64,000 bases of DNA, taken from an uncultured bacterium. Its GTDB lineage: Bacteria > Desulfobacterota_D > UBA1144 > Nemesobacterales > UBA2774. Below, piece by piece: positions 33,171 through 59,444 of this stretch (position 1 is the first letter of the stretch; each line of letters opens with the position of its first letter). Where the stretch lies: positions 32,001 to 96,000 of the forward strand of contig CAVPJU010000010.1 of the NCBI GenBank assembly GCA_963705505.1, in the 5' to 3' direction. The position numbers and the translations under genes were made by a program. The notes beneath the pieces are model-generated. The model did not search any database. It saw nothing but the letters and a program-made list of their open reading frames with translations, and was not told where the DNA came from.

Positions 33171-33187
33171 TTGGCACGCAAATTGCA
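33171..33187 (+). promoter_or_regulatory. Sigma54 (-24/-12) promoter
   Basis: TTGGCACGCAAATTGCA fits TGGCACG-N4-TTGC[AT]; GG at 33173-74 and GC at 33185-86 have the exact spacing. Confidence 0.85.
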
Positions 33188-43338: not shown

Positions 43339-44061
43339 TCACAAGTCTCCATGATGAAACTGGATTATAGAAAGAACCGCGATGCTTGCGGTTTCCGTTC
43401 TAAGAGTCCTGGGACCCAGACCCAGGGGGGTAAAACCCATTTCACTAGCAAGGAGGACTTCCTTTTCCGAAAATCCACCTTCCGGTCCTATCAATACTAT
43501 AATATTTTTAGGAAGTTGTAAAGAGTATTTTAGATGATCTTTGATGGAATGTTCATAATTAACATGGAATATCAGTGATAAGTCGCTCATATTCTTATAG
43601 TTTAATGCCTCAGAAAAATTTAAAGTATTTTCTATGATTGCCGGTCTGGTCCTTCCGCACTGCTTTGAGGCCTCAAGCGCGATCCTCTCCCATCTCTTTT
43701 TTTTATCCGCCGTCCTCACCTGCGACCTTTCGGTTATTACGGGCACGATTGTATGTACGCCTAACTCCGTCGCCTTCTCCACTATGTAGTCCATCTTGTC
43801 TCCCTTCGTGAGCCCCTGAAGAAGGGTAATATTAAGCGGGGAATCGGTCGTCACTTTCCGGGACGAAATGATATCGATGACTATCTCTTTGCTTCCGATC
43901 CCGGCTATCTTCCCGGTGTATTCCCTGGAGCACTCATCGAAGAGCGTTATGGTGTCTCCTTCCCTGAGTCTCAGCACCTTCACGATGTGTTTGTAATCGG
44001 TGCCGGAGATGAGCGCCTTATCACCTTCTATGTTTTTTTCTTTTATCGGGAATCTCGGCAT
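43339..44061 (-). CDS. rsmE: 16S rRNA m3U1498 methyltransferase
   Basis: H..KVLRL, K.DKMD..VEKATELGV, EASKQCGR, IGPEGGF, LG.R.LR.ETA. Confidence 0.95.
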   Translation of the reverse strand: MPRFPIKEKNIEGDKALISGTDYKHIVKVLRLREGDTITLFDECSREYTGKIAGIGSKEIVIDIISSRKVTTDSPLNITLLQGLTKGDKMDYIVEKATELGVHTIVPVITERSQVRTADKKKRWERIALEASKQCGRTRPAIIENTLNFSEALNYKNMSDLSLIFHVNYEHSIKDHLKYSLQLPKNIIVLIGPEGGFSEKEVLLASEMGFTPLGLGPRTLRTETASIAVLSIIQFHHGDL

Positions 44062-44138
44062 CGTTTATGCTGGAATCAGGAATGTGTTTTTATGAGACGG
44101 TTATTGTGACAGGGCCCAGCTCACCACATCCGCGGCTT

Positions 44139-45677
44139 TTATTTTTTCTGCTTCTCATGTGTAACGAAGTACTCCGCGATCTCTTCCGCGAGCTTATCGA
44201 CTGTATATTCGGGTGCGGTTATCTGAGCGACGTATCCGGCGTCCCTGAGCGTCTTCGCTGTTATCGGCCCGATGCATGCGACGGCGGGGCGTCCTGATGC
44301 GGGTCTGAATCCGGGAAATATCGAGAGGAAGTTCCTCACGGTGGATGAGCTGGTGAATGTAACTGCATCTATCATGTTCCGCTCAAGCATATTTTTTATT
44401 TTCTCCGATTTCTTCTTTCCGGGCTTCCTCGTCTCATAAGCCGTCACTACATCGACCGCGGCTCCCATCTCTCCGAGCGTGACGGGCAGGACGTCGCGCG
44501 CTTTGCTCGCCCTCGGTATCAGTATCCGCTTGCCCTTTACATTTTCCTTCCCGAACCTTTCTATGAGTCCCTCGGCCCTGTACTCGCCGGGAATGATCTC
44601 CACATCGATGCCTTTCTTCCCGATCTCTCCCGCGGTGACTTCACCGATCGCGGCTATCCTGATGCCGTAGAGCGCCCTCACGTCCTTCCCCGAGAGCCTG
44701 AGCCTCTCGAAGAACTTTCCCACGCCGTTTACACTCGTGAATACAATCCAGTCATAACTCGCGAGACTGCCGATAGCCCTGTCGAGGGCCTTAAAGCTTT
44801 TGGGAGGGGCTATCTCTATGACGGGGAACTCTATGACCTCCGCTCCCTTTTCTTCGAGCAGCCTGACGAAGGACTCCGCCTGCTCCCTCGCCCTCGTGAC
44901 TATGACCCTCTTTCCGAAGAGCGGTTTCCGCTCGTACCAGTTTATTATTTCTCTTAGATTTATGACTTCCCCCGTGACGACTATCGCGGGAGAGATAATG
45001 TCCTTCCTATCTTTCACGGATCGCGCGATGTCCCCGACAGTCCCTGTAACGACTGCCTGCGCCGGGTATGTCCCCCACGTGATGACCGCAGCGGGAGTGC
45101 CGGAAGGCTTCCCGGAATCCATGAGCTTCCGCATGTTTTTTTCGATGTTCCTCACTCCCATGAGGAATACCACCGTGCCTATTTTCGCGAGCGCATCCCA
45201 GGGGATGTTCGATTCCTCCTTCCCCGGGTCTTCGTGCCCGGTGACTACCGCGAAGGATGAAGTGACGTCCCTGTGCGTAAGGGGTATGCCCGCATACGCC
45301 GGGACCGCGGAGGCGGAAGAGACTCCGGGCACTATCTCGAAAGGGACTCCTTTCTTCGCGAGCGCCTCTGCTTCCTCTCCGCCCCTCCCGAATATGAAAG
45401 GGTCCCCGCCCTTCAAGCGCGCGACAGTCTTTCCCTTTTTCGCCCGCGCGACCAGAAGCCTGTTTATCTCGCCTTGTGACATCTCCTTTGCGCCTGCTTT
45501 CTTGCCTACGTAAATCACCTCCGCGCTCGTTCGGGCGAATGAGAGCAGCCTCCGGTTGACGAGGTAGTCGTATACGATTACGTCTGATTTCTCGAGTATT
45601 TCTTTTCCTCTGAGAGTGAGGAGGCCCGGGTCTCCGGGTCCAGCGCCTATCAGATATACGGTTCCGGCTTTAGACAT
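44139..45677 (-). CDS. cobA: Uroporphyrinogen-III C-methyltransferase / uroporphyrinogen-III synthase fusion (CobA-HemD)
   Basis: GAGPGDPGL, RLKGGDPFIFGRGGEE, then HemD motifs VTR, FTSVNGV, FTSSSTV, CIGP.T. Confidence 0.92.
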   Translation of the reverse strand: MSKAGTVYLIGAGPGDPGLLTLRGKEILEKSDVIVYDYLVNRRLLSFARTSAEVIYVGKKAGAKEMSQGEINRLLVARAKKGKTVARLKGGDPFIFGRGGEEAEALAKKGVPFEIVPGVSSASAVPAYAGIPLTHRDVTSSFAVVTGHEDPGKEESNIPWDALAKIGTVVFLMGVRNIEKNMRKLMDSGKPSGTPAAVITWGTYPAQAVVTGTVGDIARSVKDRKDIISPAIVVTGEVINLREIINWYERKPLFGKRVIVTRAREQAESFVRLLEEKGAEVIEFPVIEIAPPKSFKALDRAIGSLASYDWIVFTSVNGVGKFFERLRLSGKDVRALYGIRIAAIGEVTAGEIGKKGIDVEIIPGEYRAEGLIERFGKENVKGKRILIPRASKARDVLPVTLGEMGAAVDVVTAYETRKPGKKKSEKIKNMLERNMIDAVTFTSSSTVRNFLSIFPGFRPASGRPAVACIGPITAKTLRDAGYVAQITAPEYTVDKLAEEIAEYFVTHEKQKK

Positions 45678-45851
45678 GACGATCAGTAAAGAAAACCGAA
45701 GGGGTGCTCCATTGTCAAGAAATTTCTCAGGCGCTTTAAATAGTGCCTGATATATGTATTATATTAGCGCTTGCCCGATAATTCTGTATGATAATATTAA
45801 GTTATTCCTGGGAATCAGAATACACGATAACTTTTTGGGCGGAGGCGAACT

Positions 45852-46442
45852 ATGCTCGTTAAAGACTTCATGACACCCGATCCGATTACCGTTACATCCG
45901 ATAAAAGGGCGGACGAAACCCTCGAGATGATGAGGAGCCTCAATTTCAGGCAGTGCCCTGTCGTCGAGGGCGGAAAGCTTGTGGGGATAGTGACACAGCG
46001 TGATATACGGGCGGCGCTCGTTCAAGGCGGCAACCTCAAGGTCGGCGATATTATGGCCAGGAACCCGATAACGATACTCGATTACGCTTCCGTCGAGGGC
46101 GCGGCCGAGATCATAAGGAGCGGCAAGTTCAACGCCCTCCCCGTCGTCTCGAACAGGGGAGACCTGGTCGGTATTCTGACCGTCACCGACCTGCTCGACG
46201 CATTACTCAGGATGCTGGGGTTCCATGAAAAACCCCAGAGGCTCGAAGTCCAGATGCCTGACGGCATAGGCCTCTTCGACGTGCTGCATGTAATCCAGAA
46301 CAATTCGGAGAAGGTGCTCTCTTTCAGCGCCGCGCCCGAGAACCGGAAGCTCTACTATTTCTGGGTGGTCAACTGCAACTTCGGCGAGACCGAGAAAGCG
46401 CTCCGTAAAATGGATACCAAAATAAGCACGATCAATTCGTGA
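45852..46442 (+). CDS. CBS-pair protein (AcuB-like)
   Basis: Two CBS repeats (M..DPIT, LVGIVT.RD, LPVV, GILT.TD) plus an ACT-like tail. Confidence 0.8.
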   Translation: MLVKDFMTPDPITVTSDKRADETLEMMRSLNFRQCPVVEGGKLVGIVTQRDIRAALVQGGNLKVGDIMARNPITILDYASVEGAAEIIRSGKFNALPVVSNRGDLVGILTVTDLLDALLRMLGFHEKPQRLEVQMPDGIGLFDVLHVIQNNSEKVLSFSAAPENRKLYYFWVVNCNFGETEKALRKMDTKISTINS

Positions 46443-46524
46443 GGTGTCTATTCAGTGATATGAACGCCTGCGGAACTTCTGGTATAATACAAAAAGGCCG
46501 GTAGATAAAAGGGTCCTTTCTGTC

Positions 46525-46899
46525 ATGGAAGCGGAACAGTACGAATTCATTCTGGATCACTATAAAAACCCGAGAAACTACGGAACGATAGAAGACGCGG
46601 ACGCCTCCTTTGAAGAGGGGATACCTTCCTGCGGGGACGTCGTAAGACTAGACCTCAAGCTCAGGGACGGCAGGGTTGAGGACATAAAATTCTCGGGGAA
46701 AGGATGCGCAATAAGCCAGGCTTCCGTTTCCATACTTACTGAAAACGTGCGTGGTAAAACGGTGGAAGAAATATTATCGTTAAAAGACGAAGAGATGCTG
46801 GGCGCTCTCGGAAAGCCGATCTCGCCCGTCAGGTTCAAATGCGCTCTCCTGGGAGTGAAAGTTCTCAAAAAAGCGCTCCTCGCCAAACGGGCGCCCTGA
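46525..46899 (+). CDS. sufU: SufU/IscU-type Fe-S scaffold / sulfur acceptor
   Basis: ILDHYKNPRN.G, CGD, GCAISQAS, R.KCA. Confidence 0.88.
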   Translation: MEAEQYEFILDHYKNPRNYGTIEDADASFEEGIPSCGDVVRLDLKLRDGRVEDIKFSGKGCAISQASVSILTENVRGKTVEEILSLKDEEMLGALGKPISPVRFKCALLGVKVLKKALLAKRAP

Positions 46900-46938
46900 G
46901 CTTCCATTCCGCGATAAAACCCGGATTCATGAAACCTT

Positions 46939-48186
46939 ATGGAAAGAGCAGCAGATAAAAAGACAGTTTTCGACCCGCTCAGGCTGAGGGAGGATTTCCC
47001 CATTCTCGGGCGGAAGGTAAACGGCAAGCCGCTCGTCTATCTCGACAACGCCGCCACGACGCAGAAACCGAAGCCTGTCATCGATACCTTAAAGAATTAC
47101 TACGAGACGCATAACTCCAATATCCACAGGGGCGTCCACACCCTGAGCTACGAATCCACCGTCTTGTACGAGGATGCGCACAAGAAGGTCGCCGGGTTCA
47201 TAGGGGCTCCCGACTGGCGCAGCATCGTATTTACGAGGAACACTACAGAATCGATAAACCTCGTCGCGTACGCGTGGGGGCTTCGTAATTTAAAAGAGGG
47301 TGACGAGGTCCTAATAACGCTGATGGAGCACCACTCGAATATAGTCCCGTGGCAGATGCTCCGCGATAGAATAGGCGTCAAGCTGAATTTTCTTCCCATA
47401 GACGGCCGCGGCAACCTGAATCTGGACGAGCTTCCTCGGCTCCTCAATGAGAGAACCAAGCTCGTGGGCATCGTACACGCCTCTAACGTGCTGGGCACTA
47501 TAAATCCGGTAAAGCGCATCGCCGAAGAGGCACGGAAGGTCCGGGCGCTCGTGTTGATAGACGCGGCTCAGTCGGTCCCTCACCTGCCCGTCGACGTAAC
47601 GGACATAGGCTGTGATTTCCTCGCGGCTTCCGGGCACAAGATGATGGGACCCACGGGCACGGGGTTCCTGTACGGGAGGCCCGAGCTGCTGGAAGGGATG
47701 GAGCCTTTCCTTTACGGCGGGGACATGATAGAAAAGGTCACGATTGAAAAGTCCACATGGAACGAGCTCCCCTGGAAGTTCGAGGCAGGCACACCGGACA
47801 TAGGCGGAGGCATAGCTTTAGGCGCGGCGGTCGATTACCTCGAAAGCGTAGGTCTTGATAACATTATGGCCCACGAAGAGGAACTCCTCAGATACGCGCT
47901 TGAAAAACTTTCAGAGCATGAATGGATAAAGATATACGGGCACGGGAATGGCGAAAGGGTAGGTGTCATATCCTTTAACGTCGAGGGCATCCACCCCCAC
48001 GATGTGGCCGGCATACTCGACGAAGATGGTATAGCCGTCCGCTCCGGTCACCACTGCGCCCAGCCTCTCATGGCGGAATTAGGCATGGACTACACGGTCC
48101 GCATGAGCTTTTACCTCTACAACACGAAAGACGAGATAGACCTCGCCGTCCGGGCGCTCAAGAGGGCGAAAAAGATTTTCGGATAA
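46939..48186 (+). CDS. sufS: SufS-type cysteine desulfurase
   Basis: YLDNAATTQKP, EHHSN, SGHKM, RSGHHCAQP. Confidence 0.95.
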   Translation: MERAADKKTVFDPLRLREDFPILGRKVNGKPLVYLDNAATTQKPKPVIDTLKNYYETHNSNIHRGVHTLSYESTVLYEDAHKKVAGFIGAPDWRSIVFTRNTTESINLVAYAWGLRNLKEGDEVLITLMEHHSNIVPWQMLRDRIGVKLNFLPIDGRGNLNLDELPRLLNERTKLVGIVHASNVLGTINPVKRIAEEARKVRALVLIDAAQSVPHLPVDVTDIGCDFLAASGHKMMGPTGTGFLYGRPELLEGMEPFLYGGDMIEKVTIEKSTWNELPWKFEAGTPDIGGGIALGAAVDYLESVGLDNIMAHEEELLRYALEKLSEHEWIKIYGHGNGERVGVISFNVEGIHPHDVAGILDEDGIAVRSGHHCAQPLMAELGMDYTVRMSFYLYNTKDEIDLAVRALKRAKKIFG

Positions 48187-48324
48187 CCTCAGCTCATTCG
48201 AATTCATCTAAATTAAATTCCCATCATTTCCATTCTCCGGAACTCCCGGCGAACATTACCTCTCTTGGGTTACAGAGCCGCAGTCTGCGGCTTCTTCCGA
48301 CATGTTCTTACCCTTCCCAATACC

Positions 48325-48344
48325 ATGAGTGAGCGCACACTCAT
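48325..48344. promoter_or_regulatory. Palindromic operator candidate (TetR-type)
   Basis: ATGAGTG-AGCGCA-CACTCAT: perfect 7-bp inverted arms upstream of the nos operon. Confidence 0.55.
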
Positions 48345-48381
48345 TTTTTGTACTATTTTCTGACATACGACAGGGACGGGT

Positions 48382-48395
48382 TTCATTAATATCAA
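48382..48395. promoter_or_regulatory. FNR/DNR-like box
   Basis: TTCAT-TAAT-ATCAA has one mismatch to TTGAT-N4-ATCAA and lies 65 bp upstream of the cytochrome c start. Confidence 0.5.
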
Positions 48396-48459
48396 TCGTT
48401 CCCGATAGTTACGATTGGCATTTAACTTTCTTAATAGTAATCGCAAAAGGAGGCTTTGC

Positions 48460-48867
48460 ATGTTGAAAAATAAGACTTTCTCATTCCCCGCCAGGATGCT
48501 GTTTATGATGCTGGTCGTTACTTTAAGTTTTCACATTTTTGTTCCCGTTTCCATCGGTTCGTCTGACGATGAGGTCGTGGAGAAGGGCCAAAAGGTTTTT
48601 CAGGACAAGGGATGTGTGGCGTGTCACTCGATAGGGAAGGGCAAGATCACAGGGCCCGACCTCTTCGGCGTTACTCAAAGGAGAGATCCGGCTTGGATTA
48701 AGAAATGGATCATGTCCCCCGATACCATGATCATGTCGGACCCCATCGCGAAAGAATTATTCAAACAATACATGGTTCCGATGCCTAATCAGGGGCTCAC
48801 GGACGAACAGGCGGACATACTCATTGAGTATTTCAAGTATCAAGATGCTAACAACGCAAAAAAGTAA
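48460..48867 (+). CDS. Monoheme cytochrome c (nos-associated)
   Basis: AGGAGG RBS; signal/TM segment; CVACH...GPDL...MPN. Confidence 0.9.
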   Translation: MLKNKTFSFPARMLFMMLVVTLSFHIFVPVSIGSSDDEVVEKGQKVFQDKGCVACHSIGKGKITGPDLFGVTQRRDPAWIKKWIMSPDTMIMSDPIAKELFKQYMVPMPNQGLTDEQADILIEYFKYQDANNAKK

Positions 48868-48906
48868 ATCTATGAGAAACCTTTTTACACAAGGAGGTAC
48901 GTAAAC

Positions 48907-50951
48907 ATGTCAGGATTGAAGAAGTGGATCACATTATTGCCGGTTTTTTTCTTGGCTCTGACTACGGTCTTTTTTACGAGCTGTAGGAATTCCGGTAGTG
49001 AGAAGCAGGCGAGTAAACAGGAGACCGTAACATGGGGATTGTCCGAGAGGCGGAGCAGGTAGCGGAGTCGAGGGGTCTTACGCCCAAGGACGTTGAGGCC
49101 GCTCTCAAGACTTACGTGCCTTCGGGGAAATATGACGATTACCTGATGTTTGCCTCCGGAGGACATTCCGGTCAGGTGTTCGTCATTGGCGTTCCTTCTA
49201 TGAGGCTCCTCAAAGAGATAGCGGTATTCACGCCGGAGCCCTGGCAGGGATTTGCGACCGGATCGAAGGAGTCGGACGATTTACTGAAAGAAGGCTATAT
49301 GCCCAACGGAAAAGACGGAAAGCTTACCTGGGCGGATACACACCACCCCGCTCTAAGCGAGACGAAAGGCGATTACGACGGACAGTTCTTATTCATAAAC
49401 GATAAAGCCAATGCGAGGATCGCAGTCATCGACCTCCGCGACTTTGAAGTAAAACAGATCGTAAAGACGCCGAACATGATCTCGGATCACGGCGCTACCT
49501 TTGTTACCCCGAATACCGAATACGTAATTGAGGGTTCCCAGTATGCAACGCCCCTTCCTTTCGAACGATACGCTCCTATGGATGAGTATAAGGACAAATA
49601 CAGGGGTCTCATTACGTTTCATAAGTTCGACAGGGAGAAGGGAAGGATAGACGAGTCCCAGTCATTCCAGATCGAGCTGCCTCCCTACTGGCAGGACCTC
49701 TGCGACGCCGGGAAGAAAGTCAGTGAAGGATGGGTATTCTGCAACTCCATAAATACGGAGCTCGCCACAGGCGGCATTGAGCAGGGCAACCCTCCCTATG
49801 AAGCGGGCGTATCTCAAAGAGACATGGACTATATGCACGTAATTAACCTGAACAAGGCCGTCGAGGTTTCAAAAGAGGCGGGCAAGACAGAGGTTATTAA
49901 CGGAATGAAGGTAATTCCGCTCAACACGGCTATCTCGGAAGGTCTTTTGTATTTCATACCGGAGCCCAAGAGCCCCCACGGAGTCGATGTAGCCCCGGGA
50001 GGAGATTATATAGTCGCTTCCGGCAAGCTCGACACACACGCGACGGTATATTCCTTCGACAAGATAATGGATGCCATGAAAAATAGCAAAATCGAGGGTA
50101 AGGATCCCTTCGGCGTCCCTGTACTGAACTTTAAGGATGTCGTCGCAGCGCAGGTCGAGATAGGCCTCGGGCCTCTCCATACGCAGTTCGATAACGAGGG
50201 TAACGCATATACGAGCGTTTTTATCGAGAGTACGGTTGCAAAATGGAAACTGGGCCCTCCTTACAATACGGGGGCAGACGCCTGGACCCTCGTTGAGAAG
50301 ATGCCGGTTGACTACAACATAGGCCACCTGGTTTGTGCGGAGGGCGATACCGTGTCCCCGGACGGCAAGTACTGTGTCGCGCTGAACAAGTGGTCCATAG
50401 ACAGGTTTACTCCGGTCGGCCCGCTGCATCCTCAGAATTTCCAGCTGATAGACATTTCGGGAAAGAAGATGCAGCTGCTTTACGATATGCCTATAGGCTC
50501 AGGCGAGCCGCATTACGTTCAGATGATCAAGGCTGACAAGCTCAAACCATGGCTCGTTTATCCGGAGGTGGGATTTGATCCGGCGACGATGAGCGTCAAT
50601 CCCGACGCGGCAAAAGCCGGGGGTGAGAAAGTCGTGCGGAGTAACGGAAAAGTCGAGGTATGGATGACCGCTATCAGGAGCCATTACAACCCCGAGCACA
50701 TAGTCGCGAGCGAAGGGGATAAAGTAATAATACATATCACGAGCGTGGAGCGGGCGAGGGACGCTACACACGGTTTCGCCATCGACGGCTACAACGTTAA
50801 CCTGAGCCTGGAGCCGGGTGAAAGCGAGACGGTGGAGTTCGTCGCGGACAAGGTTGGTGTGTATCCGTTCTACTGCACGGAGTTCTGCTCGGCGCTTCAC
50901 CTGGAGATGATGGGTTATCTCCTTGTTGAGCCAAAACAGCCAAAGTCATGA
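48907..50951 (+). CDS. nosZ: Clade II (Sec-dependent) nitrous-oxide reductase; 1-nt frameshift at about 49030-49050 separates the signal peptide from the catalytic body
   Basis: CuZ His motifs DTHH, DHG, PHG, PLHT, IGH, EPH; CuA THG...CTEFCSALHLEM; SGGHSGQ. AAGGAGGT RBS and ATG 48907 give MSGLKKWITLLPVFFLALTTVFFTS-C in a different frame from ORF 49032. Confidence 0.93.
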
Positions 50952-50954
50952 ACT

Positions 50955-51014
50955 ACTGAGGGCGCCCCATCCGGACCTTTAGTCACGGGAAGTGAAGGAG
51001 GGGGCGTCCTCGGT
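50955..51014 (+). other. Long intergenic stem-loop after nosZ
   Basis: ACTGAGGGCGCCCC pairs with GGGGCGTCCTCGGT (14 bp including G-U pairs); no U-tract follows. Confidence 0.6.
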
Positions 51015-51045
51015 TCTAACCCAAAACGGAATAAGGAGGTTTGTT

Positions 51046-51415
51046 ATGAAAAAGTTAATAGCGCCGTTTTTACTTGTAACTTTGTTAGTGTTAGCGGGCG
51101 CCGTTTACGGAGCCCAAAATGCAAGAGACTGCCCAGTCGTGGCAGAAGCAGGCAAACGATACCAGGGCAGCTGTTATGAAAGTCTACGGCGAGCTCGAGA
51201 AGCTGGATGTCAAGTCAGCAGCCGATGCGAAGGATCTTATTGCCGATGCCGTCGCCCAGCTCGGCGAAGGGGATAAGTACCTTAAGCAGGGGGACGAAGC
51301 CATGAATAAACAGGATTGGGAAAAGGCTAATTACGGTTATAACATGGCATGGCAGTATTACGTAAAAGCCGCAACATCCGGATTAAATGCAAAGAGAATT
51401 TTAACCGGACAATAA
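51046..51415 (+). CDS. Secreted alpha-helical hypothetical protein in the nos operon; 1-nt frameshift at about 51113-51119
   Basis: TAAGGAGGT RBS and ATG 51046 give signal peptide MKKLIAPFLLVTLLVLAGAVYGA. Removing one base from GCCCAAAATG joins it to ORF 51119 (MQETAQSWQ...), 122 aa. Confidence 0.7.
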
Positions 51416-51548
51416 AAACTCAGGAGAACGGCGGTTCTCCCATACGACTGGGGACGCTCTTGAATAGCGGATATTTTAGAGTATTCCCCGCCGGTTGTTC
51501 AGAAGGGCCGATCTGAATACGATGTTATTACGAACGGAGGTTTAAAAA

Positions 51549-52202
51549 ATGAAAGAAAACGAATTGATATTCGGGCCGCGAATACCGAAGGAGCTGTGGG
51601 AGAAGGAGAGAAAGAGGTTTCTTGTTCCTTCGATCGTCCTCGTCGTTGCCGCGGTGCTGCTTTTCATCTCGATATTTCTCCCTTATTGGAAACTTACACT
51701 TTTCGCGCCTCAGTATCCTCAGGGTCTCAAAGCCAGTATGTACGTAAACAGGCTTGCGGGGGATATTCAGGAGATAGACGGGCTCAATCACTATATAGGA
51801 ATGAAGCCCATGGACGAGGCTGCCGTGCTCGAACGCACGCTCAGCATATTCATGATCATCGGTATAGCGCTCCTCATCGCGGGGGCCGTATACGTGCACA
51901 GCCCGATTGCGCTTTTCCTGTGCATCCCGGCGGTGCTTTACCCCGCGTTCTTTCTGGGCGACCTCTATTTCTGGATGCGGACCTTCGGCACGAACCTTAA
52001 TCCGCACGCCCCTTTAAGCAGTGCGATAAAGCCCTTCGTACCACCCATACTCGGCGTGGGCCAGATCGCACAATTCAAGACTATCGCGAGCTGGGAGATA
52101 GGTCTCTATATGTCTATCGCGGCTTCGGTACTGATTGTCATAGGCCTCTACTTTCATCGTAAAGCTTATAAGCCGTTAATAGTAAATGAAGGCGTCAGGT
52201 AG
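51549..52202 (+). CDS. nosB: NosB-like membrane protein of clade II nos clusters
   Basis: P.W...L.APQYP.GL, I..LNHYIGM, G.NL.P.AP...PP..G; 4 TM; lies between nosZ and nosD. Confidence 0.8.
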   Translation: MKENELIFGPRIPKELWEKERKRFLVPSIVLVVAAVLLFISIFLPYWKLTLFAPQYPQGLKASMYVNRLAGDIQEIDGLNHYIGMKPMDEAAVLERTLSIFMIIGIALLIAGAVYVHSPIALFLCIPAVLYPAFFLGDLYFWMRTFGTNLNPHAPLSSAIKPFVPPILGVGQIAQFKTIASWEIGLYMSIAASVLIVIGLYFHRKAYKPLIVNEGVR

Positions 52203-52228
52203 AGAAAGGTGTAAATCCCGGGTGACCC

Positions 52229-53629
52229 GTGACTAAATATTGCCTTCTACATTTTTCCACGATCGTTATTCTTGCCCTCTCCGGAGCTGTGAACGGAGCG
52301 GCTGTCGCCAGGACAATCCATGTCTCACCGGACGGCCCCGTAAGATCAATTACTGAGGCTATAGCTTCTGCTGAGAGCGGTGATACCATACGCATCCTGA
52401 AGGGAGACTATAAAGAACATATAGTAATCAACAAGACTTTAACAATTATAGGAGAGGGTTATCCCCGCATAGACGGCGGGGGGAAAGGAGTCGTCGTTTT
52501 AATAAAAGCCCCGAGTACCGTATTCAGGGGTATTCATGTGACGGGGAGCGGCGACAGCCTGAACCTTGAGGACGCTGGTATTATCCTCGATTCCGCACAC
52601 GGGAGCGTCATAAAAGAAAACCGGCTCGATGATGTGCTCTTCGGTATATACCTCAAAAACTCTCCCGACAGTGTAATAGAAAAGAACGTCGTCGAGGGCA
52701 AGCGGCTTACACTTCCCGAACGCGGCGACGGAATAAAGCTCTGGTACAGCTCAGGGACGAAGATACTCTATAACCGGGTCCTCCACACTAGGGACCTTGT
52801 TATTTGGTGGTCGAGCAATACGCTTATAAAAGGGAATACCGTCGAGGAAGGAAGATACGGACTTCATTACATGTCGAGTAACCATAACAGGTTCGAGGAC
52901 AACATTTTCAGGAATAACTATGTGGGCGGGTTCCTCATGTATAGCAAGGGGATTGAGTTTTACAGGAATAGGTTCGTCAGTAACCGCGGCACGGGGTCGG
53001 GCTACGGAGTCGGGTTCAAGGACCTCGACGACGTAGTAGCCAAAGACAACCTTATCGCGGACAACCGCGTTGGAATCTTTCTCGATAACTCGCCCTACCT
53101 CATCGATTCGTGGAATAATATAAGCGACAACGTTATAGCTTTCAACGACATAGGCGTCTCCCTCATGCCTTCGATAAGGAGGAACGCTTTTCACAAGAAC
53201 AGCTTCGTAGATAACGACGAGCAGGTGGAGATAAGGGGAGGGGGAGAGCTTGCAGGGAACGAATGGTCCAAGGACGGCAGCGGGAATTACTGGAGCGATT
53301 ACATCGGATATGACGAGGACGGGGACGGGATAGGAGAGATACCCTACAAGTCCGAGAGCCTCTTCGAGAGCCTTATAGACTCGAAGCCCGAGCTCAGGAT
53401 ATTCGTGTTCAGCCCTGTTGCGAAGGCAATAGAGCTCGCTTCTCAGGCGTTTCCCGTGATCAAGCCCGAGCCCAAGCTCACGGACGACTATCCGCTCGTC
53501 AGCTCGGCGATACCGCCTGACCTCAGGGCAGGCGGGAGGGAAAGGGAGTTGTCGCCGAGGCTTCTTTTCCTGTCCCTCTCTATGGTGATGCTTCCCCTGA
53601 TCTTTTACGGCTACATTATGAAACGGTAA
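52229..53629 (+). CDS. nosD: Nitrous oxide reductase maturation protein NosD
   Basis: Beta-helix repeats, RGDGI.LW, RYGLHYM, GNYWSDY.GYD.DGDGIG..PY. Confidence 0.93.
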   Translation: MTKYCLLHFSTIVILALSGAVNGAAVARTIHVSPDGPVRSITEAIASAESGDTIRILKGDYKEHIVINKTLTIIGEGYPRIDGGGKGVVVLIKAPSTVFRGIHVTGSGDSLNLEDAGIILDSAHGSVIKENRLDDVLFGIYLKNSPDSVIEKNVVEGKRLTLPERGDGIKLWYSSGTKILYNRVLHTRDLVIWWSSNTLIKGNTVEEGRYGLHYMSSNHNRFEDNIFRNNYVGGFLMYSKGIEFYRNRFVSNRGTGSGYGVGFKDLDDVVAKDNLIADNRVGIFLDNSPYLIDSWNNISDNVIAFNDIGVSLMPSIRRNAFHKNSFVDNDEQVEIRGGGELAGNEWSKDGSGNYWSDYIGYDEDGDGIGEIPYKSESLFESLIDSKPELRIFVFSPVAKAIELASQAFPVIKPEPKLTDDYPLVSSAIPPDLRAGGRERELSPRLLFLSLSMVMLPLIFYGYIMKR

Positions 53630-53642
53630 ACGGGAGCTTGAA

Positions 53643-54542
53643 TTGATTGAGATTAAGAACGTAACGAAGCGTTTCGGAAAGCTGACTGCAGTCGATTCGG
53701 TGAGCTTCAGGGCTGAAAAGGGTGAAGCGGTTTCCCTCCTCGGCGCGAACGGCGCCGGAAAGAGCACGCTTATCAAATGCATACTCGGGCTCCTCGATTA
53801 TACGGGCGAGATTACGGTGAGCGGGCTCAGGGTGAAAGACCACCCGAAGGAGGCGAAGTCCCTAATCGGATACCTGCCGCAGGAGCCTCTTTTCTACGAT
53901 ATGCGCACACTCGATATAGTACGTTTCTTCGCGCGGCTCAGGAAAATTGACGAGAGGGGTTCATTGTCGGTCCTGGAGAAAGTGGGGCTTGGGGAGCACT
54001 CTTCCAAATACGCTTCAGAGCTTTCGGGAGGCATGAGGCAGCGCCTCTCTTTCGCTATAGCGCTTCTATCAGAGCCTATGTTCCTGATACTGGACGAGCC
54101 CACTTCCAACCTCGATGCTCACGCGCGCGCTGAATTCCTCAGGCTAATCAAGGAATACAAGGAGAACGGTAAGACGGTGATCTTTTCCTCGCACAGGCTC
54201 GACGAGGTGGACTATCTGGCTGACAGGGCGGTCCTGATGAAAGACGGCAGTGTCGTCATGGACGAGGAGCCGCACAGGCTGAGGCAGTCCCTCGGGCTCG
54301 GCACGAAGATGAATATCGCTGTCCCTGAGGAGTATGTCACACTGGCGTATTCGGCGTTCGCCGGTGCCGGCATAATAGTTCACGGCAGAAACGGAAGGGG
54401 CTTCCTCGTGGAGGTGAAGAGCGGGGACAGCCTCCATCCTCTGAGGGAGCTGATGTCGAGAGACATACCCGTCCTCGGGTTCAGCGTCGAGGAGCCTACC
54501 ATGGAAAATATACTCGAAGGAGCGGGAAAAGATGGAGCTTAG
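53643..54542 (+). CDS. nosF: ABC transporter ATP-binding protein NosF
   Basis: GANGAGKST, LSGGMRQR, LDEPT, SSH; lies between nosD and nosY. Confidence 0.88.
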   Translation: MIEIKNVTKRFGKLTAVDSVSFRAEKGEAVSLLGANGAGKSTLIKCILGLLDYTGEITVSGLRVKDHPKEAKSLIGYLPQEPLFYDMRTLDIVRFFARLRKIDERGSLSVLEKVGLGEHSSKYASELSGGMRQRLSFAIALLSEPMFLILDEPTSNLDAHARAEFLRLIKEYKENGKTVIFSSHRLDEVDYLADRAVLMKDGSVVMDEEPHRLRQSLGLGTKMNIAVPEEYVTLAYSAFAGAGIIVHGRNGRGFLVEVKSGDSLHPLRELMSRDIPVLGFSVEEPTMENILEGAGKDGA

Positions 54543-55371
54543 AAATATTCTCATACTGGCGGGGAAGGAAACGAGGGAGTCGCTCAAGAACAGGTGGTTC
54601 GTTTTATATACCGTCTCTTTTTCCGTCCTCGCCGTGCTCATCTTTTCTATAGCGCCCGGGAGGGGCGAGATCACGGGCATATCGGGCTACGGCAGGACGG
54701 CCGCGAGCCTGGTCAACCTCGTGCTTCTCTTTGTCCCGCTAATAGCGCTTATAACCGGAGCGATAAGCATATCCGGGGAGAGAGAGAACGGAACGCTGCA
54801 GTACCTGCTCTCGCACCCCGTAACCAAATCCGAGGTGTTCGTGGGCAAGTTCTGCGGGATACTCATCCCGATCTGTTTTTCAATTTCGCTCGGTTTCGGG
54901 CTCGCCGGTATAGGAGTCGCGCTCAGAGGCGGGAGCGGGAACTCGGCGGAGTTCATACTGACTGCGCTCCTATCGGGGCTCCTGGCTGCGTCCCTGCTGA
55001 GCGTGGGGTTTGTCGTCTCGGTGTTTTCGGGCAGGGCTTCGAAGGCGATAGGCGTCGCGGTGTTCCTCTGGCTCCTTTTTATCGTTCTCGGAGACCTCGG
55101 CATCATGGGCACAGCTGCAGCGATGGACCTCGGCATAAAGCAGGTCTTCGTGCTCGCGCTGCTAAACCCGGCGGAGGTGTTCAAGATCGCTTCCGTGCTC
55201 GTGCTCAGTCCGCGGTTCGAGATACTGGGCCCAGTCGGAGTTTACGCCGTCAGGACGTTCGGCAGGGAAGGGGTGGTCTATCTGCTCCTCTCCGTCATGG
55301 CGCTATGGACCATCATACCGTTCGTATATGCATTTATAACTTTCAGCATATTCAGGAGGGAAGAAGCATGA
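54532..55371 (+). CDS. nosY: ABC transporter permease NosY
   Basis: RTAASL.NL....VPL.AL, ERE.GTL..LL..P, GKF, NP...F. Confidence 0.88.
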   Translation: MELRNILILAGKETRESLKNRWFVLYTVSFSVLAVLIFSIAPGRGEITGISGYGRTAASLVNLVLLFVPLIALITGAISISGERENGTLQYLLSHPVTKSEVFVGKFCGILIPICFSISLGFGLAGIGVALRGGSGNSAEFILTALLSGLLAASLLSVGFVVSVFSGRASKAIGVAVFLWLLFIVLGDLGIMGTAAAMDLGIKQVFVLALLNPAEVFKIASVLVLSPRFEILGPVGVYAVRTFGREGVVYLLLSVMALWTIIPFVYAFITFSIFRREEA

Positions 55372-55802
55372 AATACTTGCTCATACTGCTTGTGCTCCTG
55401 GGTTTCGCCGCCTGTAAGGATAAAATCGATACCGGGCCTCATATTATTCATTACGGGGAAGATGTCTGCGAGAGGTGCAAGATGATTATAAGCGACAAGC
55501 GTTTTGCCGCCCAATACATCACGGAGAGCGGCGAGGCTAAAAAATTCGACGATATAGGGTGCATGATGGAGGCGCTCAAAGAGAAAAACAAGGACGGTGG
55601 CGGCGTGCTCGCCGTCTATGTCACCGACTACGTCACCGGGGAATGGATAGACGGCGGAAAGGCTTTTTATCTCAAAAACACGGAGCTCAAGACCCCTATG
55701 GGGTACGGTATTGCAGCTTTCGGAAACGAGGAATCGATGCGGGCGAGCCCATTTTATAAGGACGGGCGGGCGCTCGGGGGAATCGATGACCTCCAGAAAT
55801 AA
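55368..55802 (+). CDS. nosL: Copper chaperone lipoprotein NosL
   Basis: ATG 55368 overlaps the nosY stop (ATGA); lipobox FAA-C; C..C.M.I, FDD.GC, TPMG.G..AF. Confidence 0.9.
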   Translation: MKYLLILLVLLGFAACKDKIDTGPHIIHYGEDVCERCKMIISDKRFAAQYITESGEAKKFDDIGCMMEALKEKNKDGGGVLAVYVTDYVTGEWIDGGKAFYLKNTELKTPMGYGIAAFGNEESMRASPFYKDGRALGGIDDLQK

Positions 55803-55821
55803 ATAATCCCGGACGGTTCCC

Positions 55822-56409
55822 ATGGATAAAAGGATTATAGATCCTAGTGAGAAGATTCAGAGCGCCGCGCTTGCGCTCTTTATCAAAAAAGGCATAGCGG
55901 GCACGACGACAAAAGAGATCGCGAGGAAGGCGGGTGTATCCGAAGGCTCCATTTATAATTACTTCGAGAGCAAGGGAGACCTCGCGTATAAGCTCTTTGT
56001 CCGGTATATGGACAAGTTCAGGGACGAGCTCTCGGTAAAATCGGCAGGCGCGGACGGCCCCGCGGGAAAGCTATCCGCCGTCGTCGGGGCTTTCTTCGGA
56101 TTTGCCGAGAGAGAGCCCGAGGCATACGCCTATATAATGATAGGACACTACACCGAGCTCCAGAAAATGAAATATGACAAAAAGAAGCCCAAGGACGTAT
56201 TCGTCGAAATAATCGGGGAAGGCGTTAAAAACGGCGTATTCATGAGCATGGACGAGAACCTCGGGGCAGCCTTCGTCATAGGGATGGTTACCAGGGCGAT
56301 CCTTTTTCATAAGAGCGGCATGCTCGGTATGCCCTATGCGAGGCTTATAGAGGATACCGTGGCCTCTTCCTTACGCGTCCTCGGCGCAGACACGCCGCGG
56401 CCCTTGTAA
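55822..56409 (+). CDS. TetR/AcrR family transcriptional regulator
   Basis: AL.LF..KG...TT.KEIA..AGVSEG.IY.YF.SK..L; starts 19 bp after nosL. Confidence 0.9.
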   Translation: MDKRIIDPSEKIQSAALALFIKKGIAGTTTKEIARKAGVSEGSIYNYFESKGDLAYKLFVRYMDKFRDELSVKSAGADGPAGKLSAVVGAFFGFAEREPEAYAYIMIGHYTELQKMKYDKKKPKDVFVEIIGEGVKNGVFMSMDENLGAAFVIGMVTRAILFHKSGMLGMPYARLIEDTVASSLRVLGADTPRPL

Positions 56410-56522
56410 ACCCGTATAAAATTTTCATAGTATTAAACTTATCCGCTGGAATTATATCCCGGAATGTGCAGGTTATATTTATACTTTATGCATGCTGGTA
56501 AAAATTACACGGAGGATATAGA

Positions 56523-56915
56523 ATGCTCGTAAAAGAATGTATGACCGTAAACCCTGTGACCTTTTCCCCTAAAGAGGACGTCAGGGTCGCCTTTAACACA
56601 CTTACCGACCGCAAGATTCGTCAGGCGCCTGTACTCGAGAATGGAAAGCTGGCCGGTATAGTCACGGACAGGGACCTCAGGCTCGCGGTGGTGGAGACCC
56701 TTACGGAGCCGGGTTTGACTGTGGGTTCCGTCATGACGCGGGACCCCGTAACGGTCAACGAGAATTCTTTACTCAAAGATGCGGCCAGGGTGATCGGTAA
56801 AAACAAGTTCAACGCGCTCCCGGTGCTTTCCGATTCCGGTGAGCTCGTGGGCGTCCTCACTACCACCGATATACTCAACGGTCTCGTTAGAGCGCTCGAT
56901 GCGGAGAAAAAATGA
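56523..56915 (+). CDS. CBS domain protein
   Basis: Stand-alone CBS pair; paralogous to 45852-46442. Confidence 0.85.
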   Translation: MLVKECMTVNPVTFSPKEDVRVAFNTLTDRKIRQAPVLENGKLAGIVTDRDLRLAVVETLTEPGLTVGSVMTRDPVTVNENSLLKDAARVIGKNKFNALPVLSDSGELVGVLTTTDILNGLVRALDAEKK

Positions 56916-56973
56916 CGACCCGTTTCTTTCTATGTTTAAGGCATTAATATATTGTTGACAAAGGAGAGCCTTT

Positions 56974-57414
56974 ATGAAGATTGAGAAAATATTGTTTCCG
57001 ACGGATTTCTCCGCCAGGTCGCTCAGCGCGAGGGAGCACGCGCTTTACCTCGCCCGGGCCCTCGACTCGTCCGTTTATCTGCTTCACGCGATAGAGCCTC
57101 TGAAATACGAGGAGGTGGACGACGAGATCAGGGAATTTTATAAGACGCTCGAGACCCAGCTCGGTGAAAAAATGGAACGGGAAAAAGAGGTCTTTGAAAA
57201 AAGGGGTCTAAGGGTGGATACGGACATAGTTATCGGTCAGAGGTGGAGGGTAATAGACACATATGCCAAAGAGAAGGGAATCGACCTGATAATCATGGGG
57301 TCGCACGGCATCAGGACCGAGACGGGGGAGGTTTCCGTGGGCACGACTAGCCACAAGGTCATGTTCTCGTCCCCATGCCCCGTTCTGATAGTGAGGCACG
57401 ACGAAGCCCGTTAG
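56974..57414 (+). CDS. Universal stress protein
   Basis: ILFPTDFS, DLIIMGSHG, G.T..KV...SPCPVLIV. Confidence 0.9.
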   Translation: MKIEKILFPTDFSARSLSAREHALYLARALDSSVYLLHAIEPLKYEEVDDEIREFYKTLETQLGEKMEREKEVFEKRGLRVDTDIVIGQRWRVIDTYAKEKGIDLIIMGSHGIRTETGEVSVGTTSHKVMFSSPCPVLIVRHDEAR

Positions 57415-57478
57415 TAATATTCTTAATGAGATTTTTACAAAACTGATATAAAATTAGGGCATATTATTACAGGAGGAG

Positions 57479-58297
57479 ATGCTTGATATGACGAGATTCC
57501 TGCCGGATTTGAAGCGGTTTGTCCTTTTAATCGCTGTCGTTGCGGCACCATTTCTATTATCGTCCGGGCCGGGCTTAAACGCGTACGCTCAGGACGGCGG
57601 TACTCAGGCCGCGCCTATAAAACCCGTGATAGACCCGGTCGCAGACAAGCTGCTGAAGTCTATGGGGGCTACGCTCTCTTCCGCCAAGGCTTTCACTTTC
57701 AGGGCCGATATAAACTTCGACCAGCTCCTTGTTTCCGGGCAGCAGATTCAATACGGAGGGACGGCGAACCTGACGGTCGAGAGGCCCAACAAGGTTTATG
57801 TTGAGTTCACGGGGGACCTGGACGGAAAAAGAATATGGTATACGGGTAAGGACGTTACAGTGCTCGACGTGAATAAGAATTTTTACGGCAAGCTGGCCGT
57901 ACCCGCAACTATTGATGAAGCCATGGATAACCTTATGGATCAATACGGGTTCACCCTCCCGCTTTCCGACGTAATGGTGAGCGACCCGTATAAGGCGTTT
58001 ATCAGAAACGTCGCCGCGGGCGTAGTCATCGGGGACAGCATGATAAACGGTCAGCAGTGCAAGCACCTGGCTTTCGTCGAGAAGTATATAGATTGGCAGA
58101 TATGGATTTCAGACGGGGCGCAGGCGCTTCCCTGCAAGCTGGTCATAACGTACAAGACCATACCGGGCGGGCCTCAATATTCGGCGGTATTTTCCAACTG
58201 GGCGATCAACCCGGCTATAAACGCGTCGGTATTCACGCCTGTGCTGCCTGAAGGGGCAGAACGGATAGAGTTTATAAAAATGGGTAATCAACAATAA
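57479..58297 (+). CDS. DUF2092 family periplasmic protein
   Basis: Signal peptide; A..LL..M...L, RP.K, P..ID, LP.SD, C.HLAF....DWQIWI, P.KLVIT.K...G.PQY. Confidence 0.8.
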   Translation: MLDMTRFLPDLKRFVLLIAVVAAPFLLSSGPGLNAYAQDGGTQAAPIKPVIDPVADKLLKSMGATLSSAKAFTFRADINFDQLLVSGQQIQYGGTANLTVERPNKVYVEFTGDLDGKRIWYTGKDVTVLDVNKNFYGKLAVPATIDEAMDNLMDQYGFTLPLSDVMVSDPYKAFIRNVAAGVVIGDSMINGQQCKHLAFVEKYIDWQIWISDGAQALPCKLVITYKTIPGGPQYSAVFSNWAINPAINASVFTPVLPEGAERIEFIKMGNQQ

Positions 58298-58310
58298 TCC
58301 GGGGGCTGAT

Positions 58311-59408
58311 ATGAGAAACCTGAGACAAATGATAAATAGAACGACTATAGCTGCTGCCGTATTCGCGTTCGCAGCATCGGGGGTATTAATGACGGGAGAC
58401 GCCTATTCCCGGGGCGGGTTCGGAGGAGGAGGGTTCGGAGGCGGTTACAGGGGCGCGGATTTCGGCTCAGGAATGGGCGACAGGGGCTTCGGAAACGTCA
58501 GGTATTCGGGGAACAGCATGGGTGACATGTCCGGCTACAAGGGCTTTCAGGGGGATAATTTCGGAAGCAAACAGTCCTTCCAGAACTCCGATTTCAGTCA
58601 GGACAAGAGCGACTTCGGCGGGGATCAGGACTCATTCTCGGGCCGCCAGTCCGAGTCCCAGGACAATACGGGCATGACCCAACGCCAGGCCACGAGCCAG
58701 AACCGCGCCATAGAATCCGATAACGGGCAGAATACCAGCAAAACGACCAACGGCACGACGACTAACGGCAAGACCAACAGCAGCACGAACAGCAACAGCA
58801 CGAACAAAAATAACACCAACAACACCAATAACAGCAACAATTCCAACAACAAGAATAACAACAACAATAACAACAATAATAATAATAATAACACCTACAA
58901 CACCTACAACAATTACAACAACTACAATCACTATTGGGGCGGATACTGGGGCTCATGGGGCGGTTATTACGGCGGGTGGGCTTTCGCGGGCGGCCTGGCC
59001 ATGGGAGCCGCAATAGCGAGTATCCCGGCAAGCTCCTCCACTGTCTATGTATCGGGAAATCCGTTCTATTATTCGGACGGCGTGTACTACGCTCCTCAGG
59101 GCAGCCAGTACATAGTCGTTCCGCCTCCGCCGGGCGCAGTCGTCGATACGCTCCCACCGTCATGCGACACCGTATATGCAGGTGATGATTCGTATTTTGA
59201 CTGCGGGGGCGCGTTCTATTCGTCTGCGGACGCGGGGTTTCAGGTCGTACAGCCCCCTGTGGGCGCGACAGTGGACTCTCTCCCCCAGGGAGCGCAGCGG
59301 AAAACAATAAACGGGACGACTTACTATCTCTTCGGCGCCGCGTATTACCAGCCGTTTTACAGCGGGAGCAGCGTGATATACCAGGTAGTCCCCGATCCGA
59401 CTGCTTAA
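58311..59408 (+). CDS. Secreted low-complexity Gly/Asn-rich protein with DUF6515-like Tyr/Pro-rich repeats
   Basis: Signal peptide, GGFGG repeats, Asn-rich tract, three repeats of LP.....V....YY...G.YY.......Y.VV..P. Confidence 0.7.
   Translation: MRNLRQMINRTTIAAAVFAFAASGVLMTGDAYSRGGFGGGGFGGGYRGADFGSGMGDRGFGNVRYSGNSMGDMSGYKGFQGDNFGSKQSFQNSDFSQDKSDFGGDQDSFSGRQSESQDNTGMTQRQATSQNRAIESDNGQNTSKTTNGTTTNGKTNSSTNSNSTNKNNTNNTNNSNNSNNKNNNNNNNNNNNNNTYNTYNNYNNYNHYWGGYWGSWGGYYGGWAFAGGLAMGAAIASIPASSSTVYVSGNPFYYSDGVYYAPQGSQYIVVPPPPGAVVDTLPPSCDTVYAGDDSYFDCGGAFYSSADAGFQVVQPPVGATVDSLPQGAQRKTINGTTYYLFGAAYYQPFYSGSSVIYQVVPDPTA
58790..58930 (+). repeat. AAC/AAT trinucleotide low-complexity tract (13 consecutive Asn codons at 58854-58892)
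   Basis: Read directly from the sequence. Confidence 0.9.
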
Positions 59409-59444
59409 GCGACCCGACAGGGGACTCATCAGGGCTTTACGGCT

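Follow-up and report, generated by a model that had tools for sequence, protein, structure and literature searches.

A clade II nitrous oxide reductase operon of a Dadabacteria-type bacterium encodes a free form of a helical module that other lineages carry fused to NosZ

The window considered here is a stretch of 64,000 nucleotides from the genome of an uncultured bacterium (assembly GCA_963705505.1, contig CAVPJU010000010.1, positions 32,001 to 96,000 of the forward strand), and at 48460-56409 on its + strand lies a nitrous oxide (N2O) reductase cluster of nine genes in the order cytochrome c gene, nosZ, a small gene for a secreted protein, nosB, nosD, nosF, nosY, nosL and tetR. The locus raises the question of whether such a cluster, in which both nosZ and the small gene are split between two reading frames, can serve N2O reduction, what the small gene encodes, and from where the enzyme might receive its electrons. 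The assembly comprises 2.88 Mb in 10 contigs with a completeness of 93.6%. The small gene is identified below as the free form of a helical module that is fused to NosZ elsewhere, and this is the new point of the analysis; the cluster as a whole is likely to be an ordinary, vertically inherited clade II nos operon of a Dadabacteria-type bacterium, its breaks likely artefacts and its products probably functional.

The class of the enzyme was assigned by family models. NosZ scored 853 bits against TIGR04246, the model of the Sec-dependent type (cut-off 625), and 426 bits against the twin-arginine translocation type TIGR04244, below the cut-off of the latter, and it belongs to the clade II, Sec-dependent type. 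With residues counted from the ATG at 49032, the CuZ histidines H104, H105, H153, H316, H383, H432 and H494 and the CuA ligands H580, C615, C619, H623 and M626 were invariant in an alignment of 38 clade II NosZ proteins, and they align with the positions that we take to be the metal ligands of chain 1QNI_A, the clade I enzyme of solved structure; the PDB sequence matches included no NosZ chain of clade II. The protein terminates directly past the CuA domain and carries no fused cytochrome. Its leader, read by eye from an ATG at 48907 behind a strong ribosome-binding site, ends in a lipobox-like cysteine (...FFTSC) and has no twin arginine. The leaders of the relatives are of the same type and in frame with the enzyme, and since the lipobox cysteine is found in 10 of the 11 (L002-L012), NosZ is probably a membrane-anchored lipoprotein. 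The pattern common to the window (48907-48984) and these relatives can be written …[FLI]-x-[STG]-C, L011 being the one without the cysteine. The original prediction, made from the letters of the DNA, had described a nos operon of clade II whose NosZ has a Sec-type leader, all seven CuZ histidines, the CuA ligands and no C-terminal cytochrome fusion, and each of these features was borne out, the leader being more precisely of the lipoprotein type; the predicted gene order and identities likewise hold on Pfam and NCBIfam matches and, for NosB, on the LNHYIGM signature.

For comparison, the nine proteins of the window were searched for in 91 loci, of which 11 belong to related genomes and 80 were obtained by scanning one genome for each species; this sample is biased towards kin, because it was chosen as the loci nearest to this NosZ. 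The records of the relatives are labelled Thermodesulfobacteriota or Ca. Dadabacteria. In a quick maximum-likelihood tree of 65 rows, NosZ sits in a clade of 23 Dadabacteria-type NosZ proteins with 100% support, and its terminal branch of 0.089 is shorter than the median of 0.11. The nearest proteins, at 78-80% identity, come from metagenome-assembled genomes labelled Thermodesulfobacteriota, Ca. Dadabacteria UBA2774 and Bacterium HR37. Four other public loci (L002 in genome G004, with a TGA, and L075, L086 and L099) have an in-frame stop in nosZ, and their proteins were excluded from the alignments.

The small gene lies directly after nosZ. A 5' part at 51046-51121 encodes a signal peptide of the signal peptidase I type, MKKLIAPFLLVTLLVLAGAVYGAQN, and the mature frame at 51119-51415 encodes 98 residues, for which AlphaFold2 predicted a bundle of three helices (2-27, 35-63 and 67-96) with a pLDDT of 94.5. 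A Foldseek comparison of this model with the PDB gave no match at E <= 0.001, and the hits were generic or designed helical bundles only. The protein has 194 close homologues of 122-127 residues; those to which a source gives a name are termed 'hypothetical', save for one JGI record named 'nitrous-oxide reductase'. A hidden Markov model (HMM) built from these stand-alone proteins also matched NosZ itself, namely about the last 95 residues of the NosZ open reading frames (ORFs; 762-813 codons) of seven Beta- and Gammaproteobacterial loci, with E values of 8e-11 to 2e-7, and the motif WQYxVKxAxxGLxAK is common to the stand-alone proteins and these C-termini. A profile search of 1.84 billion representatives matched only 110 clusters (at 50% identity), and of the 18 long matches scanned with Pfam, 11 carry NosZ domains N-terminal to the matched part. 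The same region was found in the Sec-dependent NosZ of Aliarcobacter butzleri (P0150, 863 residues), the Wolinella-type form of Campylobacterota termed cNosZ, in which the NosZ core is followed by a helical module at 655-757 and a cytochrome c domain at 770-856. The small protein is 36% identical to cNosZ residues 699-756 (E 2e-6), and hhalign joined it to the interdomain segment with 97.4% probability (E 1.3e-11, 83 columns). That segment is kept in 1106 proteins, the best 120 of which are 69-100% identical there; those of the 120 with a name belong to Aliarcobacter, Malaciobacter, Arcobacteraceae and Campylobacter. We thus identify the small protein as a free-standing homologue of the cNosZ segment between the NosZ and cytochrome c domains. 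It had first been set down as an unknown secreted protein; far from being a stray addition to the operon, it is the unfused counterpart of a module present in cNosZ. We found no description of this helical module in the openly searchable literature, and subscription papers may bear on it.

The distribution of the small gene follows that of nosZ closely. Both were found in 25 of 41 related genomes and neither in 14, and each occurred alone once, NosZ in G040, where it is of a distant type, and the small gene in G026, as a match at a contig end. Wherever matches were checked by coordinates (for example in G013, G014, G003, G007 and G011) the two genes are adjacent on one contig. Among the 91 loci, a small gene between nosZ and nosB was detected by HMM in 23, all of the Dadabacteria type. 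The fusions make the small protein a probable NosZ-associated module. The operon cytochrome has a counterpart in cNosZ as well: this monohaem c-type cytochrome of 135 residues (48460-48867; PF00034, E 1.5e-12; haem motif CVACH, with an N-terminal signal or anchor) is, over residues 43-131, 32% identical to the cytochrome domain of A. butzleri cNosZ (771-859; E 2e-13). Of the 85 loci with enough upstream DNA, 46 have a same-strand CxxCH ORF no more than 1.8 kb ahead of nosZ. Campylobacterota cNosZ and the operon therefore share three modules, NosZ core, helical module and monohaem cytochrome c, and both enzymes are Sec-type clade II; in the window, however, the modules are three separate genes with leaders of their own and the cytochrome gene stands upstream, so that the operon, although it would function as a divided cNosZ, is not a member of the cNosZ group. 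Because three genes here correspond to one cNosZ chain, we propose the operon cytochrome as the direct electron donor to the CuA site of NosZ and the helical protein as a NosZ module. In the role that we prefer, though tentatively and with less than even confidence, the small protein may dock on the enzyme near CuA and position the dedicated cytochrome there; jointly with that role, and at the same tentative level, three evolutionary states of the helical module could be distinguished, free in Dadabacteria, fused to NosZ in Beta- and Gammaproteobacteria, and placed between NosZ and cytochrome in Campylobacterota. Alternatively, the protein might assist the folding or assembly of apo-NosZ after its export by Sec. 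Prediction of a complex of NosZ with the small protein, run without controls, gave scores of 0.00 and 0.02, which speak neither for nor against such binding.

The genome was searched for the other steps of denitrification. Neither nirS (PF02239) nor nirK (TIGR02376) had any match in this 93.6% complete genome, no NrfA was found above the cut-off, and no molybdoenzyme of NarG or NapA size was detected. Since all three haem-copper oxidases (PF00115) are terminal oxidases, two of the caa3 type and one of the cbb3 type with a fused CcoNO, nor is also absent. The fused cbb3 gene (G000:C10:482595-484760; L126:4595-6760) is an ORF of 721 codons joining COX1 to FixO and is followed by genes for CcoP, CcoG and a DsbD_2 protein. 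By this inventory the organism appears to be an N2O reducer of aerobic or microaerobic habit that does not denitrify. The original prediction had suggested a potential N2O sink and a genome search for nirS, nirK, nor and bc1 or alternative complex III; the search returned no nir or nor genes, two Rieske/cytochrome b loci and an alternative complex III, and the organism is a candidate non-denitrifying sink.

Whether the enzyme could be made depends on how the two breaks are read. In the assembly the leader of nosZ and the mature enzyme occupy different frames, and no single reading frame runs from leader to stop. The 5' part (48907-49048, frame 1, with a good ribosome-binding site at 48892-48899) encodes the lipoprotein-type signal peptide MSGLKKWITLLPVFFLALTTVFFTSC and a variable linker, and the mature enzyme, a seven-bladed propeller with the CuZ histidine ligands followed by a CuA cupredoxin domain, is encoded at 49050-50951 in a frame that is open from 49017, has an ATG at 49032 and ends at 50951. 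DNA alignment with the relatives L003, L004 and L005 placed the frame break at 49048-49050, where the window reads CCGAGA-GGCGGAG and is one base short behind 49048; addition of a base there yields ...LSE-x-AEQVAESRGLT, matching the ...PETAEQIAEARGLT of the relatives. A run of four G at 49034-49037 had been considered as the site and was ruled out, because the homologous sequences show the base to be lacking behind 49048. The small gene, too, is divided between two frames, its leader read from the ATG at 51046 and its mature frame from 51119, by a surplus G at 51121: the window reads AAATGCAAGAG where four relatives have AAAT-CAGGAG or AAAT-GAAGAA. The CCC/AAAA homopolymer stretch at 51113-51119 was rejected as the break site in favour of this extra G. 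Each of the two genes is a single open frame in the loci of eleven relatives. Contig sets from public runs (X1-X4) also contained pieces crossing the breaks, which are 95-96% alike to the window and therefore come from other strains. An X1 contig of 1214 bases (96% alike) has a C inserted behind 49048, with a net gain of 7 bases over 49030-49048, and a related-strain contig of X3 lacks the base at 51121, so that both genes are in frame in related strains. No RNA run was among the public runs listed.

The frameshift load of the assembly was measured with 294 ORFs of at least 150 residues from 400 kb of the same-genus genome G003 as queries. Of these, 234 had an orthologue-like match, and 14 of the 234 (about 6%) aligned in two or more frames, about 10 of the 14 with clean abutting junctions; in the reverse control, with ORFs of the assembly placed on G003, the count was 3 of 233 (1.3%). 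The frameshifted genes include those for MetH, an M17 aminopeptidase, a 2-oxoacid dehydrogenase E2 component, a Mur-ligase-family protein, a sigma-70-family factor and a lipoate ligase (LplA/B). Examples of such sites lie at C10:237917-237930, 256866-256868, 267383-267387 and 297328-297336. Some 6% of broken genes is not credible in a free-living bacterium, and the assembly therefore carries indel errors; any single broken gene in it calls for caution. Interior stops were counted in 14 versus 5 genes, a comparison confounded by differences in start sites, spurious antisense ORFs and read-through of frameshifts. As a separate observation, a DAO-family oxidoreductase gene (G000:C10:477179-478322; G003:C1:123671-124808) is an intact ORF in both genomes, although each C-terminal half finds its best alignment in another frame of the other genome's DNA; it may be a compensated frameshift or a region open in two frames.

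We consider it likely that both breaks in the nos cluster are assembly errors. All remaining nos genes are intact, and NosZ, with every ligand retained, shows no other defect. The contrary view, that both frameshifts are real and that the organism has recently lost N2O reduction, its cluster being a young pseudogene cluster in which NosZ and the small protein have lost their export signals, would make the intactness of the other genes and a NosZ branch that is not lengthened harder to explain, and it would have to hold for a genome in which all kinds of gene, housekeeping ones included, are frameshifted at about 6% against 1.3% in the control, which is implausible biology if the organism is free-living. 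The other same-genus genomes searched also have nosZ as a single open frame, the exceptions being G009, G004 with one in-frame TGA, and G002, where the gene is cut by a contig end. Several points nevertheless weigh against assembly error and in part favour real loss. Neither indel sits in a homopolymer, and therefore the commonest context of long-read errors does not apply. Both breaks lie directly behind a signal peptide, and at the rate of the assembly about 0.43 breaks would be expected in a 7.9-kb cluster, so that two within 8 kb are a mild excess (P of two or more about 0.07). Both rpoB and rpoC are intact, and hence no strictly essential gene was caught frameshifted. The same-genus genome G009 likewise has a split nosZ and a split small gene, which could mean recurrent decay rather than error; at G009:C17:75975-78369, nosZ lies in two pieces that overlap, and the small gene is interrupted, with a TAG. 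Among the X1-X4 pieces listed, no contig or read of the same strain crosses 49048 or 51121, the public contigs there being from other strains only. To these may be added, for the wider reading of the locus, that the absence of nir and nor was established in a genome 93.6% complete, and that only the fusions suggest contact of the small protein with NosZ or with the cytochrome. Taken with the load across the genome, real loss of the operon appears unlikely to us, though it deserves to be kept in mind. A further explanation is that the breaks belong to working genes, either through programmed ribosomal frameshifting or through internal starts at 49032 and 51119 that would yield leaderless cytoplasmic proteins, and in both genes an ATG, at most a few codons from the break, does open the downstream frame. 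We nevertheless hold programmed recoding to be very unlikely, because neither break is shared by any relative, so that there is no conservation, and because the shifts are of opposite direction (-1 and +1); a slippery heptamer is moreover absent at 49040-49055. During Nos maturation copper reaches NosZ in the periplasm via NosL and NosD, and a cytoplasmic NosZ from an internal start would be out of reach of it. We give this explanation, in either form, almost no credence.

If the breaks are errors, the source of electrons remains to be considered, and NosB is the only membrane protein of the cluster with no assigned role. It is encoded at 51549-52202 (217 residues), has about four hydrophobic stretches that, read from the sequence, resemble transmembrane helices, and matched no Pfam or NCBIfam model; in the protein atlas it has only unnamed entries or automatic 'cytochrome C family' names without Pfam families. 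Two NosB motifs, LNHYIGM and YGHN, are given in the accessible text of PMC9697520. The first is present here (GLNHYIGMK) and occurs as LNHY[IV]GM in all 78 well-covered homologues from related nos loci; the second reads FGTN here and YGHN in 7 of the 78, and the motif is therefore not general. A NosB homologue was found in the nos cluster of 84 of the 91 loci, mostly next after nosZ or the small gene. NosB could be envisaged as the point of entry at which quinol is oxidised, giving the cluster a self-contained electron path in which the bc-type complexes and alternative complex III play no part; its universal presence in related loci would suit such a role, as would the report that it is essential in Wolinella, where a function in electron transport or copper handling is assumed (PMC9697520, accessible text). 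Against this, no motif for cofactor binding could be recognised in NosB, in which the histidine of YGHN is replaced, and the title of Hein et al. 2017, as cited in PMC11409646, has N2O respiration of Wolinella needing a Rieske/cytochrome bc complex besides NosB. Complete complexes of the other kind are also on hand in the genome. There are two Rieske/cytochrome b loci, one on C3 beside a caa3 oxidase and one on C10 that also has cytochromes and a NapC/NirT-like gene; on C1, the genes for alternative complex III encode a multihaem ActA-like protein, an ActB-like protein of 982 residues, an NrfD-type ActC, ActD and a second NrfD-type, ActF-like protein. We therefore regard NosB as quinol-oxidising entry point as highly improbable. 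The C3 cytochrome b gene (G000:C3:96264-97667; L123:8264-9667) has a C-terminal c-type domain and adjoins the Rieske gene and the caa3 operon, and that locus could encode a unit resembling a bc-caa3 supercomplex. No NosR or NosH was found in the genome, where Fer4_5 occurs only in CcoG and in a fusion protein of the pyridine-nucleotide oxidoreductase kind. Electron delivery had originally been assigned to the monohaem cytochrome and NosB or to genes elsewhere; of this, delivery by NosB alone is unneeded, and the genes elsewhere take shape as the Rieske/cytochrome b complexes and alternative complex III.

No gene for nosR, nosGH, a Rieske protein or cytochrome b was found in the cluster or in the flanks examined (43339-62114), as had been expected for the cluster itself, and a search confined to the same cluster and flanks found no nosX/ApbE. 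The membership of the cluster, which had been called non-standard, proved to be the usual one. The exact order nosZ-nosB-nosD-nosF-nosY-nosL is the commonest in the sample (35 of the 91 loci), and the full order of the window, cytochrome and small gene included, was found in 11, with 12 truncated loci consistent with it; a further 11 have nosZ-nosD-nosF-nosL-nosY-nosB, and 7, all of them proteobacterial, carry additional genes. When Thauera nosG, nosH and cytochrome genes and the Rieske and cytochrome b genes of the genome itself served as queries, 82 of the 91 loci had none of nosGH, Rieske or cytochrome b near nosZ. Export by Sec and the presence of nosB are described as a rule for clade II in the accessible part of PMC11409646. 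Other non-proteobacterial clade II clusters (Chloroflexota, Ignavibacteriota/Bacteroidota, Gemmatimonadota, Planctomycetota) have the same core order and likewise no nosR, nosX, nosG or nosH; the Gemmatimonadota loci have an upstream monohaem cytochrome detectably similar to that of the window, and same-strand CxxCH ORFs stand upstream of nosZ in Myxococcota and Planctomycetota loci too. In contrast to these clusters, the lipobox leader of NosZ and the terminal TetR gene are traits of the Dadabacteria-type family. The NosGH/C1/C2 quinol dehydrogenase module is typical of Campylobacterota; the window is without it, and its genes, sought with the Thauera queries, occur only in the 7 proteobacterial loci of the 91. 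These Beta- and Gammaproteobacterial loci of the Thauera/Thiohalophilus type (L102, L104, L105, L108, L110-L112) also have nosB and nosDFLY, but differ from the window in that the helical module is fused to the C-terminus of NosZ and two cytochromes and nosG/nosH are added. The presence of nosZ in metagenome-assembled genomes of Dadabacteria has been reported by Kato et al. 2018 (PMC5877337), one of whose genomes, Bacterium HR37, is our locus L043 and has the gene order of the window; the accessible part of that paper gives the presence of the gene and does not describe the anatomy of the cluster or the nature of the small gene.

The surroundings of the operon are conserved as well. In G003 and G013 synteny covers the whole of CBS-NifU-SufS-[nos]-TetR-CBS-Usp-DUF2092-DUF6515-P-type ATPase, and in G007 it runs from the cytochrome gene to DUF6515, whereas G014 shares the nos genes and a CBS-like gene only. 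A tetR gene follows nosL in three of the four relatives' genomes compared; in L041, L042 and L045 a TetR gene stands upstream of the cytochrome gene. Between tetR and the downstream CBS gene, L129 (G003) and L130 (G007) have about 1.2 kb more DNA than the window.

Upstream, the sufS-like gene ends at 48186, and a consensus scan placed a terminator-like hairpin 3' of it at 48325-48344 (+ strand), which is the probable upstream boundary of the nos transcription unit. A sigma-54-like promoter motif, TGGCAT-N5-TTTC, follows at 48416-48431 on the + strand, 29 nt ahead of the start codon of the cytochrome gene. The sigma-54-type pattern TGGCAY-N5-TTKCW has three matches in the window versus 0.13 expected; the motif upstream of the cytochrome gene is kept in six same-genus loci, the canonical TGGCAT-N5-TTGCA is found in the more distant loci L034 and L043, and rpoN is present in the genome. 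From these patterns we infer that a sigma-54 promoter at 48416-48431 may drive the nos cluster. The other two matches lie at 33172-33187 (+), a canonical pattern upstream of a cytochrome c maturation operon, and at 2593-2608 (-). A scan for sigma-70 promoters found 6 versus 7.4 expected.

Downstream of nosB the + strand carries the maturation genes, namely nosD for the periplasmic beta-helix protein (52229-53629; TIGR04247, 422.7 bits; PF05048), nosF for the ABC ATPase (53643-54542; PF00005, in the conserved position), nosY for the ABC-2 permease (54532-55371; PF12679) and nosL for the copper chaperone lipoprotein (55362-55802; PF05573, E 1.6e-13; leader ...LGFAAC). The gene for the TetR-family regulator (55822-56409; PF00440) begins 20 nt past nosL, with which it is probably co-transcribed. 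The stop of the small gene is closely followed by a GC-rich hairpin of 7 bp at 51421-51442, which has no T-tail on the + strand and may serve to stabilise or process the mRNA where the nosZ part gives way to the maturation genes. The RNA fold of the spacer between the small gene and nosB was unremarkable (z -1.86), and an Rfam scan of 44000-60000 found no family reaching its gathering score.

Read as an intact operon, the cluster suggests the following course. NosZ would be exported unfolded by Sec and anchored to lipid through its lipobox cysteine, and in the periplasm it would receive its copper and sulfide from NosDFY and NosL, with NosB acting at the membrane. Electrons from quinol would reach the operon's monohaem cytochrome c through one of the two Rieske/cytochrome b complexes, or through alternative complex III, and that cytochrome would pass them on to CuA; the three-helix protein probably sits on NosZ and may help to hold or orient the cytochrome. 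The breaks behind 49048 and at 51121 would be indel errors of a long-read-type assembly, and since errors are the most likely explanation for them, the organism is probably able to reduce N2O but not to form it.

N2O is a greenhouse gas for which organisms that have a clade II NosZ, but lack nitrite and nitric oxide reductases, act as net sinks, and the present locus adds a well-described example from Dadabacteria-type bacteria of wetland and peat. It also cautions that apparent gene breaks are not to be read as loss of function without evidence from the reads. The identification of the small gene means that some 110 clusters of 'hypothetical' proteins (at 50% identity) represent, in unfused form, a conserved helical module that is also found in more than 1000 Campylobacterota cNosZ sequences and in proteobacterial clade II NosZ, and it gives a testable candidate for the docking of cytochrome donors by clade II enzymes. 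If the docking reading is true, the Dadabacterial operon would be a natural 'split cNosZ', the parts of which could be studied separately.

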